Assembly (NCBI GenBank): GCA_963771075.1
Contig: CAVYSE010000028.1
Coordinates: 96,001-160,000, forward strand
Reading direction: 5' to 3'
DNA from: a candidate division FCPU426 bacterium
GTDB taxonomy: Bacteria > Oederibacteriota > Muellerivitia > Muellerivitales > Muellerivitaceae
DNA: 64,000 bases
The notes below the pieces were generated by a model. That model saw nothing but the letters and a program-made list of their open reading frames with translations. It ran no database searches and had not been told where the DNA came from. Numbering within the stretch: the first letter of the stretch is position 1; each line of letters starts with the position of its first letter. Made by a program: the position numbers and the translations under genes. Below are positions 11,992-15,666 of the stretch, one piece after another.

Positions 11992-12019
11992 TGTTCCTTT
12001 TGGGTCCCCGTCGCGGACA
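11992..12019 (+). repeat. 28-bp putative recombination site 1
   Basis: TGTTCCTTTTGGG-TC-CCCGTCGCGGACA; right arm conserved, left arm degenerate; 14 bp after the recombinase-domain stop. Confidence 0.75.
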
Positions 12020-12046
12020 GCCCGTTTGGACTAGATTTACAATTCC

Positions 12047-12351: not shown

Positions 12352-12379
12352 TGTCCAATGCGGGTCCCCGTCGTGGACA
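12352..12379 (+). repeat. 28-bp putative recombination site 2
   Basis: TGTCCAATGCGGG-TC-CCCGTCGTGGACA. Confidence 0.8.
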
Positions 12380-12397
12380 GCTTTAAAACCCAACTTT

Positions 12398-12767: not shown

Positions 12768-12795
12768 TGTCCACGACGGGTCCCCGTCGTGGACA
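12768..12795 (+). repeat. 28-bp putative recombination site 3 (perfect palindrome)
   Basis: TGTCCACGACGGG-TC-CCCGTCGTGGACA: perfect 13-bp inverted arms around a TC dinucleotide. Confidence 0.85.
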
Positions 12796-12852
12796 CCTAA
12801 AACCCTTAATAAACTCTATTTTATCCTTTTTGTCGAAATGACGGCAGAATAC

Positions 12853-12887: not shown

Positions 12888-13205
12888 GTGATATCAACAC
12901 TGCCACAATGCGTGAAAGAGATCGCAGAATTCCCCCAAGATGTACGGGAAGATCTCGCCGACGCTTTAGCACGATTGGATGAAGGTCACACGCTTTCCAT
13001 GCCCCTGTCCCGGCCGATGCCTTCAATTGGAAAGGGTGTACATGAATTGAGATTCAGGGATCGTGCAGGAATTTATCGGGTGATCTATATTTTGGTTGGC
13101 GCGGGAATCATTTATTTGGTTCATGCATTTGTGAAAAAAGACAAGAAGACGCCGATGCCGAATATTGATTTGGCGAAAAGACGCTTAAAGGAAGTGAAAA
13201 GATGA
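12888..13205 (+). CDS. Type II toxin, RelE/ParE (HigB/Gp49-like) family
   Basis: MPLSRPMPSIGKGVHELR...GIYRVIY...LVHAFVKK..KTP; toxin-first order with an ATGA overlap. Confidence 0.9.
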   Translation: MISTLPQCVKEIAEFPQDVREDLADALARLDEGHTLSMPLSRPMPSIGKGVHELRFRDRAGIYRVIYILVGAGIIYLVHAFVKKDKKTPMPNIDLAKRRLKEVKR

Positions 13206-13489
13206 AACATAAAAGTACGGCGGTTGAAATTGCGAAATTGGTAGGTATTTCTCCAGCGAGAGGAATGGAGGCTATTATCAAAGCACAACTGATAACAGCT
13301 GTTTTGCAAGCCATTCAAGTTAAGAAAATGACTCATCAGGAACTCGCTAAGCGCGCAAAGCTCCCCAGGAGCGCCGTGACGGGTATTCTTTCTGGCAGTT
13401 TGCAGAAGGTCACCATTGATCGAGTTCTGAGACTCATTGAAGCGGCGGGTCTTATCGCGGAGATTCGAATCAGAAAATCTGCCGCCTAA
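13202..13489 (+). CDS. XRE-family HTH antitoxin
   Basis: MTHQELAKRAKLPRSAVTGILSG...TIDRVL HTH; translationally coupled to the toxin. Confidence 0.88.
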   Translation: MKHKSTAVEIAKLVGISPARGMEAIIKAQLITAVLQAIQVKKMTHQELAKRAKLPRSAVTGILSGSLQKVTIDRVLRLIEAAGLIAEIRIRKSAA

Positions 13490-13623
13490 AGAAAGTTCTG
13501 GGGGAACATTACCGAATAAAAACAAAGATAGCATGTATGGGCCAGCGACCTGCGTAGTAGCTTGATCAATAGTAGCTGATCAAAAACGCGGGTTGCTCCT
13601 GTTAAGGAGCCTGAACATTGGGG

Positions 13624-13895
13624 TCACCTATGAAAAAGAATGTCCAGGCAAAAGCGTAGTATCACGGCCCCAAGTCCAACCTGAGTCTCAAAGGACTACA
13701 AGTCAGTCACCTATTCGCGGTTGTTTCACCGCACGATAACGTTGGACCCGGCCGCTCAATCACCTATGAAAAAGAATGTCCAGGCAAAAGCGTAGTATCA
13801 CGGCCCCAAGTCCAACCTGAGTCTCAAAGGACTACAAGTCAGTCACCTATTCGCGGTTGTTTCACCGCACGATAACGTTGGACCCGGCCGCTCAA
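13624..13895 (-). repeat. Perfect tandem duplication, 2 x 136 bp, in the IS 3' non-coding region
   Basis: 13624-13759 and 13760-13895 are identical by inspection; TCA continues at 13896-13898. Confidence 0.95.
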
Positions 13896-13953
13896 TCAGG
13901 CCAAGGACCTCAACTCTTGCGGGTTGTGTCAGACCCCGTCGGAGCTGGCCGGG
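13805..13953 (-). ncRNA. Predicted bridge/seek RNA of the IS1111 element
   Basis: Two stem-closed loops. Target loop guides GGGGTC and TTGGCCTGA match the flanks GACC-TGA-CCCC. Donor loop guides GTTATC and ATAGGTGA match the junction ATAGG-TGA-TAAC. Boundaries approximate. Confidence 0.75.
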
Positions 13954-14951
13954 CAGTCCTCAAAAGCTTCCTTCTTTCGTAACATATGAAAGATGCTTTT
14001 CAGCATAGCCCTTGCTACTGCTATTCGTCCCGCGTTATTCCCATGCTTCTTCTTCACCCTCGTGTATAAGGTCCCATACCGTCGGGTTTTGCGAATGGCA
14101 TGAAGCGAGTTCTCAACCAATATCCAGCGAATCCATTTAGAACCCTGTTTGGTGATGTGGCCGTTGTGGCTTTTTCCCCCTGATGCGTGAACACTGGGGA
14201 CCAATCCACCATAAGAACATAGATGTTCCGCGTCCGGGAACCGGCGAATATCCCCAATCTCGCTCAAAATTAATAAAGCCGAAAAGGCACCCACGCCTGG
14301 CATGGTCATCATCAGCTGGGCTTCCGGGCTTTCTGCTGCCATTTTCTTGATCACCTCTTCTGATTTGGCGATCTCTTGGCCTAGTTCCCGGATTACTTCC
14401 ATATATCCGTCCAGTTCCAAACGGTAGCAAGGCCGGGTACCTACCGTGGCAAGTTCGCGGAAGTTCTTTATTCCGAATCGGTTTTTAGTAACGGGTTCGA
14501 TTCCCGCCTTGGTCATGACCGAAGTCATCCGGTTTTTGGCTTGTGTTCTCAATTGCACCAGGGAAGCCCGGTACCTAAGGATTTCCCGTAAGTCGCGGAT
14601 CTCTCGGGGTGGCACATAGGCTCGTGGCAGCAGATCCACCCGCAAAAGTTGAGCCAGGATTCCCGAATCAATTTTATCCGTCTTGATCTTGGCCGAGGCT
14701 ATGGCTTTGACCTTTTGGGGGTGGGCCAATACCAGGTTGGGGAATCGATCCTCGATGAGTTCGTAAAAGTGATACCAATGACCTGTGGCTTCTACTACGA
14801 CCTGGCTACTCACGGGTTGCTTCTTGAAATAAGCCTTTAAAGTATCCGCGTCGTTCTTCAGATCGACTTGTTCCAGCACCTTTCCTTTCTCATTCACTCT
14901 CGTGACGTAGGATGTTTTCTGGTGTAGGTCTACTCCGATATACTGTCCCAC
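13929..14951 (-). CDS. IS110-family DEDD transposase/recombinase
   Basis: IGVDLH, VVVEATG, KIKTDKIDS, MPGVG, YGGLVPSVHASGG, GHITKQG; RBS AGGAGG upstream of GTG. Confidence 0.97.
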   Translation of the reverse strand: MGQYIGVDLHQKTSYVTRVNEKGKVLEQVDLKNDADTLKAYFKKQPVSSQVVVEATGHWYHFYELIEDRFPNLVLAHPQKVKAIASAKIKTDKIDSGILAQLLRVDLLPRAYVPPREIRDLREILRYRASLVQLRTQAKNRMTSVMTKAGIEPVTKNRFGIKNFRELATVGTRPCYRLELDGYMEVIRELGQEIAKSEEVIKKMAAESPEAQLMMTMPGVGAFSALLILSEIGDIRRFPDAEHLCSYGGLVPSVHASGGKSHNGHITKQGSKWIRWILVENSLHAIRKTRRYGTLYTRVKKKHGNNAGRIAVARAMLKSIFHMLRKKEAFEDCPASSDGV

Positions 14952-15094
14952 GGCTGCACCTCCTAAGCGTTTTGCACCACCTGCAAAGGTGAGTGCCTTT
15001 TCGACTCTGGGTTTATCCTAGAGCCTCGTCCCACTTAAGTGGAGACGCTCTACGCTTGGAGCTCTGCAGCCTTTTTCATGTTATCAGGTCTTTA

Positions 15095-15185
15095 TTTTAT
15101 ATTATCTATCCGGGCCTTGAACCGCGTCTCTCCCTCCATCCGCTTCTTTATTATCGCTATCCGGTTCCCCACGGCCGAAGAAGAA
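15095..15185 (-). pseudogene. Remnant C-terminal tail of a REP-associated (Y1) transposase-like gene
   Basis: Manual translation SSAVGNRIAIIKKRMEGETRFKARIDNIK* resembles the ORF at 18022-18216 (ASAVGNRWLTMKKRIRED); the stop is followed by AGACC-TGACCCC once the IS is removed. Confidence 0.55.
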
Positions 15186-15666
15186 AAAAGGCGCCTGGCC
15201 AACATTCAACACTTTAAGCCGTTCATTCCCCTGGAGTCATTGATCATCGTACTCCTGGAATCTCCCTGGCGCCCTTCAGGAAATCAGTTTACAGTTCGCC
15301 CCAATAGCTCATGGCAATTGGGATCACCAAACCACGCCTCTCACCTTGAAGGTTCGAGGCAGGAGACAGTTCGCAGCCCATAAACGGCAGAAAAACTGCA
15401 ACATTATTGACCGATTTTGACCCTTTAGGCCTGTTCCCCACCCAAATATTCGCTTTCATTCGATTTTCCAATTGACGCACAAAAGCATAGCTATTAGTTA
15501 TTAGCTGTTAGCGTTTAGCTGCGGCCTAAACCAAGAGCAAGAAGCTAACACCTTAGGGGAGAATTCCATTAGTTGGCGGTCGACAGTCGACGGTCGGCAG
15601 TTAGGCCTTTAAAGCTGGCTGTCGACAGTGGGCTGTGGACTGTCGACGGCCTTTGGAGGCTCCGCT

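Follow-up and report, generated by a model that had tools for sequence, protein, structure and literature searches.

A right-end-anchored tandem duplication in an IS1111-type element, with its inner breakpoint at the DNA of a predicted left-target guide

Introduction

Tandem expansion beside IS110-family transposase genes was surveyed by Hu et al. (10.64898/2026.08.14.744561), who reported 468 cases at IS110 loci, composed of non-coding units with left-donor-only boundaries, and proposed that left-donor-end reactions are resolved in place. In the available part of that paper, which also treats 5,813 partial circles, internal endpoints recur and the sequences recognised there are left undefined; the terms 'IS1111' and 'LT-only' are absent from its main text as accessible. 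For IS621, Xie et al. (10.64898/2026.08.31.748434) described that a single half-site, the left target alone included, suffices in vitro, and the words 'self', 'own' and 'encoding' do not occur in the accessible portion of their text. Sun et al. (10.1101/2025.10.25.684509) described direct transfer of the right junction of CazIS110-1 to a new target, together with tandem repeats that revert, found among excision clones (3 of 96). The donor loop by itself supports excision, according to the accessible text of PMC13626964. Among IS1111-family seekRNA elements, ISEc11, ISKpn4, ISPa11 and IS4321/IS5075 were characterized by Siddiquee et al. 2024 (PMC11187229), whose available text gives the group a 7-nt left and a 3-nt right terminal extension and places the right-target guide before the left-target guide.

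No statement that guide-coding DNA serves as a recombination site was found in the main texts of the IS110/IS1111 papers searched, nor in the accessible parts of PMC11208160, 10.1101/2025.05.14.653916, 10.64898/2026.04.29.721476 and PMC13674456. The literature searched, as far as its texts were accessible, likewise held no discussion of how bridge-RNA elements treat their own guide DNA.

Here we describe an IS1111-type element with a 136-bp tandem repeat, located in a window (the whole stretch of DNA analysed) of 64,000 nucleotides. As far as the available texts allow comparison, its repeat unit resembles those of Hu et al. in being non-coding, tandem and next to the transposase gene, with one boundary at the left-donor end. 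It differs in the second boundary, which they call 'yet to be defined', having tested donor matches alone, and which here is the element's own left-target guide DNA. The half-match of IS621 is alike in that the core plus one matching arm, left target included, suffices, but was obtained with a full donor, synthetic partners and an IS110-group enzyme. CazIS110-1 offers a parallel in that the top strand of its right junction is passed to a new target, with tandem by-products that revert, although those repeats comprise the whole cargo between true ends. The seekRNA elements share with this one the 3' non-coding region, the extensions, the guide order and the choice of other elements' ends or repeats as targets, whereas the present element targets the ends of RAYT elements and has a perfect inverted repeat of only 9 bp. 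In ISPpu9/MITEPpu9 (PMC12288879, in its accessible part), internal end-like sites likewise lead to circles of less than the whole element and to a small-RNA module present in tandem copies; those sites are full copies of the end box, unlike the guide-coding DNA considered here.

The element, its ends and its target

The recombinase was assigned to the IS110/IS1111 family from its DEDD RuvC domain and its C-terminal PF02371 domain with the conserved serine (Table 1). Terminal extensions lie beyond the inverted repeats (TGATAAC on the left, AGG on the right), as in the IS1111 group, and guides and covarying stems are found at and past the transposase stop codon, corresponding to the downstream non-coding region of that group. 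The sub-terminal inverted repeats are perfect over 9 bp (such repeats are usually 11–13 bp long and perfect or nearly so), match at 13 of 20 positions on extension and are 70% identical over 30 nt. At the sequence level, domains, 3' guide region, extensions and guide order thus agree with the IS1111-type identity proposed in a preliminary description of this DNA. The nearest plasmid match shows 41% identity, and the clade is without a name; a plasmid DNA search with the right end gave no match. Scanning the genome contigs with the single protein yielded nothing, while an alignment-based scan yielded matches.

Table 1. Features of the duplicated element and its target in the window.
Feature	Position	Strand	Basis
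IS1111-type element including both TGA cores, 1463 nt at this locus	13624..15086	-	
Intact RNA-guided recombinase of the IS110 family (340 aa), with D8/E54/D92/D95 and S257	13929..14951	-	PF01548 and PF02371; NF033542 above cut-off; residue conservation
Left end, made up of the 7-nt extension TGATAAC (15080-15086) and the sub-terminal inverted repeat of this side (15071-15079)	15071..15086	-	
Predicted target-binding loop, single copy, intact	13883..13953	-	covarying outer stem, guide-flank covariation, fold
Parts of the target loop: outer stem, right-target guide GGGGTC (13932-13937), inner hairpin, left-target guide TTGGCCTGA (13896-13904)		-	
Inner breakpoint: TGA core within the left-target guide DNA	13896..13898	-	sequence
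Repeat unit 1, the one nearer the transposase gene, comprising the 3' strand of the target-loop stem, the donor-binding loop, a -35-like hexamer and the inner right end	13760..13895	-	sequence, alignment fold
Predicted donor-binding loop of unit 1: right-donor guide GTTATC (13871-13876), left-donor guide ATAGGTGA (13843-13850)			
Inner right end of unit 1: inverted repeat (13766-13774), AGG, core (13760-13762)		-	
Repeat unit 2, with the outer right end and a further copy of the donor loop	13624..13759	-	sequence
Outer right end of unit 2: inverted repeat (13630-13638), AGG, core (13624-13626)		-	
Novel junction joining the right end (left-donor half) through TGA to post-guide TTGAG	13759..13762	-	sequence
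Inner target part: multi-copy terminal repeat from a RAYT-type (Y1 transposase) element	15087..15179	-	
Outer target part CCCCAATGTTC, completing the RAYT-type end	13613..13623	-	

Six other complete copies are present in the genome. Each measures 1327 nt and shows 0 differences from the one-unit version of the present element, and none is duplicated, so that the comparison of genomic copies suggested earlier singles out this locus. The left junctions of all seven insertions read ...CC|TGA|TAAC and the outer right junctions of all seven read ATAGG|TGA|C(C/T)CC; because both sets agree, TGA was taken as the core. From the same insertions, the left target is roughly TTGGCC/AAGACC and the right target is CCCC (6/7) or CTCC.

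The RAYT-type terminal repeat hosts three of the seven complete copies, this locus included. We counted 30 such ends, and about two dozen well-matched empty target sites exist in the genome. The clade target consists of the TGACCCC ends of RAYT-type elements encoding Y1_Tnp and a DnaA-like HTH (e.g. G000:C3:341990-342931, L443:90-1031), and a relative in L021 occupies the same kind of end. A literature search gave no paper naming both IS1111 and RAYT among the matches listed. A solo 34-bp right-end fragment followed by TGACCCC stands behind short tandem repeats of a host end at G000:C6:2793-2836 (L445).

Predicted bridge RNA and its guides

The left-target guide was located by covariation with the flank. 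In 19 distinct related elements, the five bases preceding a conserved TGATTG in the 3' non-coding region agreed with five bases of the left flank of the respective element at 75 of 95 positions, against a mean of 38 (sd 5) in shuffled controls, none of 100,000 shuffles reaching 75; the 19 elements are kin, which overstates this significance. When 20 right-end regions are aligned, their common fold shows a target loop and a donor loop, with compensatory changes at 15 of 23 pairs. The single-sequence fold is not significant (z -1.4) and does not open the donor loop, which the alignment fold does. Candidate right-donor guides matched at 4–6 of 6 positions in the best 6-mer, a comparison that has no control and is suggestive only. 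The Rfam search returned no relevant family. Read on the minus strand, the right-target guide comes before the left-target guide, which is the order of the IS1111 group.

The element contains 29 TGA triplets, one of which shows a 6/6 match to the left-target guide, namely the guide itself, where the match is true by construction; the next best matches at 3/6. Over nine positions, the guide DNA agrees with the guide at 9/9 and the true left junction of this copy, AAGACCTGA, at 6/9. To its right, the guide site reads TTGA, compared with CCCC or CTCC in 7/7 insertions, and is therefore a poor full target.

The 136-bp duplication

The preliminary description had reported an identical 136-bp tandem repeat with both breakpoints at the recombination core, and this holds in the assembly: positions 13624-13759 and 13760-13895 are 100% identical. 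The match continues to 13898 (139 nt in total) and extends leftward by 0 nt, so the breakpoints share TGA only. On the minus strand, the unit starts directly after TTGGCC-TGA (13896-13904) and ends with the right end CATAGG-TGA. The core was set by the seven left and seven outer right junctions, and the placement of the inner breakpoint in left-target guide DNA, also claimed at the outset, is backed by the guide-flank covariation. The unit carries the donor loop and the right end, leaving the element with two right ends, as first described.

At the novel junction, the full right end is kept, i.e. there is a left-donor match only, which is how Hu et al. define their boundary; opposite it stands TTGAGCG, which shares 2/7 positions with the right donor TAACATG. 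With 136 bp, 100% identity and a position adjoining the transposase gene, the unit also falls within their thresholds of at least 50 bp and at least 95%. Exact tandem duplications of at least 50 bp are rare in this genome, with 10 rows across 4.39 Mb.

The first unit retains a complete two-loop RNA gene. Because of this and of the intact recombinase, the element is probably still mobile from either right end, and the repeat probably able to revert. The DNA could possibly encode an RNA in which a single target loop is accompanied by two donor loops. In our reading, a normal circle junction would give TGGACA-17-TAACAT; the duplication junction forms no -10 hexamer, and no promoter-like site was found across 13500-15200.

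Evidence on the physical reality of the junction

The repeat is confirmed at the level of the assembly. Four short-read runs of 18 listed, from four studies (X1, X2, X3 and X5), were compared, and the junction was seen in the contigs of none. In X1, X2 and X5, the element is a single piece on one contig, with no break at the guide; in X3, the right-flank junction of this locus is present and the element body is uncovered (93% read). The depth in X1 (51 vs 8) implies about six copies per genome, and its flank contig departs from the window at 13612, which makes the insertion at this locus uncertain in X1. Among the contig pieces listed for the four runs there was no joint or junction piece, with no extra depth at the junction bin, and no circle joint occurred among the joints listed. 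A degenerate, family-level junction motif had 19 metagenome matches, none near an IS110 gene and all attributable to chance, and was found in 0 of 164 loci. The reciprocal product is absent from the genome, all seven guide sites continuing normally. Since neither the four runs nor the metagenome motif search showed the junction, the repeat either is confined to the source strain or molecule or is an artefact.

An assembly or sequencing artefact, or replication slippage independent of the recombinase, would account for a junction seen in no independent run or collection. The assembly looks like a long-read one, with identical 1.3-kb repeats resolved, and fold-back inverted duplications occur on five contigs (G000:C18:280800-283850 and the ends of C10, C17, C22 and C26), probably as long-read artefacts; one lies within a copy of this element. 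Their arms are 91–97% identical, however, while the duplication at 13624-13895 sits mid-contig with both units error-free. Slippage would have had 3 nt of homology to work with, yet both ends fall on the core; exact tandem rows are rare, as noted above, and the same end-anchored geometry recurs in seven other genomes. We therefore consider an artefact or slippage unlikely. As a separate observation, the fold-back that involves this element passes through a partial copy of it.

A RAYT-type host element, the ends of which often carry short tandem repeats, might also have made the duplication, and TGACCCC-containing tandem repeats of 10–275 bp do occur at host ends in this genome. Those units hold TGACCCC plus outer flank, whereas the 136-bp unit is devoid of CCCC and lies wholly inside the insertion sequence, making this origin extremely improbable.

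Right-end repeats in other genomes

The survey drew on 653 IS110-family loci of other genomes, with some redundancy, of which 596 were usable and 473 remained after rough de-duplication. Tandem repeats at the right-end junction, of 15–648 bp, were found at 16 other loci in seven genomes, i.e. about 3% of the surveyed loci; the count of 16 of about 476 is approximate, as de-duplication lost three known positives (L243, L601 and L605), and copies within one genome are not independent.

Two of five copies of another IS1111 element, inserted at different sites of one genome (G091), carry the same 64-bp duplication, running from the donor-guide core to the right end (L255:1759-1893 and L257:1796-1931); their breakpoints share 7–8 nt of homology, which slippage could use too. 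In L066, a 46-bp unit starts 3 nt past the donor-guide core. Units restarting at non-guide sites were found in L243 (648 bp), L341 (283 bp), L401 (15 bp) and L007/L017/L028 (17 bp). The seven affected copies in G675 have units of 19–353 bp, some in arrays of three or four units or of mixed units, and restart at several TG cores, none a target guide; L601, L600 and L607 restart at right-target look-alikes. The G675 element (L596-L620) is itself an IS1111 element with a TG core, with right-end repeats of up to four units in seven of about 27 copies, and would be a good natural system for studying one-ended expansion.

In the survey for duplications beginning at a guide core, proposed in the preliminary description, the donor guide lay at or beside the start in three of the 16 (L255, L257 and L066) and the target guide in none, guides having been placed by eye in five of the seven genomes, the other two having an inner break less than 20 nt from the end. 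A second donor loop was present in none of 39 locus records of the element's own clade with a full right end, a redundant set that includes four records from this genome.

Tandem repeats classed as flank, host-repeat, gap-edge or left-end were excluded, namely those at L008, L029, L021/L046, L040/L041, L100, L222, L224, L266, L323, L371, L399, L442, L568, L581, L589 and L655; among these, L371, L442 and L021 were inspected and the remainder were judged from position. Two further arrangements were observed: the left end of L048 resembles an inverted right end, and in L042 the right end is followed at a short distance by another left end.

Proposed mechanism

From the geometry of the repeat and the identity of the guide, we infer a recombinase mechanism. 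In our proposal, the recombinase loaded with bridge RNA would have bound two sites 136 bp apart, namely the right junction and the guide DNA; at the latter, the left-target guide would pair at 9/9 positions with the bottom strand of its own gene. The top strand would then be cut at the guide TGA and joined to the right end, an exchange that places the post-guide sequence next to the right end. This single-strand joint may then have been fixed as a tandem repeat by replication or repair, instead of departing as a 136-nt circle. We give even chances to the reading that the element's own recombinase joined the right end to the left-target guide DNA, recognised as a half-matching target.

This reading is favoured by breakpoints that share only 3 nt, both the core, by the guide-flank covariation, by the 9/9 match of the guide site against 6/9 at the true left junction, by the 16 right-end-anchored repeats in seven genomes and by error-free units as opposed to the 91–97% identical fold-back arms. 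The three donor-guide cases (L255, L257 and L066) and the target look-alikes (L601, L600 and L607) also speak for it, and published in-place tandem units, half-site sufficiency and direct right-junction transfer lend it support by analogy, within the accessible parts of those reports. Against it, the case is a single locus, the absence of target-guide starts in the 16 others gives no sign of a general preference, and the junction was seen neither in the contigs of the four runs nor among the 19 metagenome matches.

The same one-ended reaction of the right end may instead have taken a nearby TGA core as partner, the guide being involved by coincidence. Seven TGA cores lie within 140 nt of the right end; G675 copies and the non-guide restarts listed above show such partners being used elsewhere, and in the available text of Hu et al. 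(10.64898/2026.08.14.744561) partial circles have an unmatched boundary whose resemblance to the donor does not exceed chance. The strongest objection to a role of the guide is that one guide match in 17, selected as a match and with seven TGA nearby, is compatible with chance. The site used here is, however, the farthest of the seven and the sole full left-target match, and several other cases restart at look-alikes of target or donor halves, so partner choice seems non-random. We regard a coincidental core as rather unlikely. Taken jointly, the two one-step recombinase readings probably apply, which would make the repeat a right-end-anchored duplication of the class already described; what is new is the inner breakpoint at target-guide DNA. 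The self-targeting put forward in the preliminary description is plausible but unproven.

The route originally suggested was the insertion of a whole second element into the guide DNA, followed by collapse of the 1.2-kb left parts through homologous recombination or by the assembler. It predicts exactly the observed sequence, and, from the accessible texts, a left-target half-site accepts a circular donor in vitro (10.64898/2026.08.31.748434) and IS110 seems to be without target immunity (10.64898/2026.08.14.744561). Nested insertion takes two steps where one in-place step suffices, however, and the guide/left-end junction that it would create is absent from the assembly, with none listed in the four runs. 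About two dozen better empty targets were available in the genome, the guide site having the poor right target TTGA, and nested insertion cannot yield the arrays of three or four or of mixed units seen elsewhere. Since such three- and four-unit arrays exist at other loci, the in-place, one-step joining of the right end to the guide DNA is the simpler route; the second-copy route is not needed and is very unlikely.

Implications

In CRISPR systems, PAMs prevent cutting of the own array. Bridge-RNA genes might, tentatively, be regarded as built-in decoy sites, IS1111 recombinases recurrently recombining the right end with the element's own target- and donor-guide DNA. It is conceivable, if doubtful, that such recombination amplifies or loops out donor-loop modules, each left guide copying a half-site plus core. 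If this decoy reading were true, it would put a name to some of the internal endpoints that recur, so far unexplained, in partial circles and repeats. Should guide DNA be a real substrate, it would give an identity to internal endpoints left undefined in the 2026 survey, offer a route to vary donor-loop dosage and provide a design rule for editors, predicting self-rearrangement of bridge-RNA cassettes in editing vectors. If it is not a substrate, the locus is one more right-end-anchored repeat, of the kind present at about 3% of surveyed loci.

Surroundings of the element

The left end of a different IS110-family element lies at 13523-13612 of the window and belongs to the same sequence family as the left ends in L369, L373 and L375. 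It is cut at 13612 by the RAYT-type end, which was later entered by the IS1111 element, making three nested mobile elements. A set of palindromic repeats of 20–31 nt between small genes, with a Gp49/RelE-like and HTH gene pair after them, covers 12002-12021, 12352-12382, 12768-12798 and 12888-13489.
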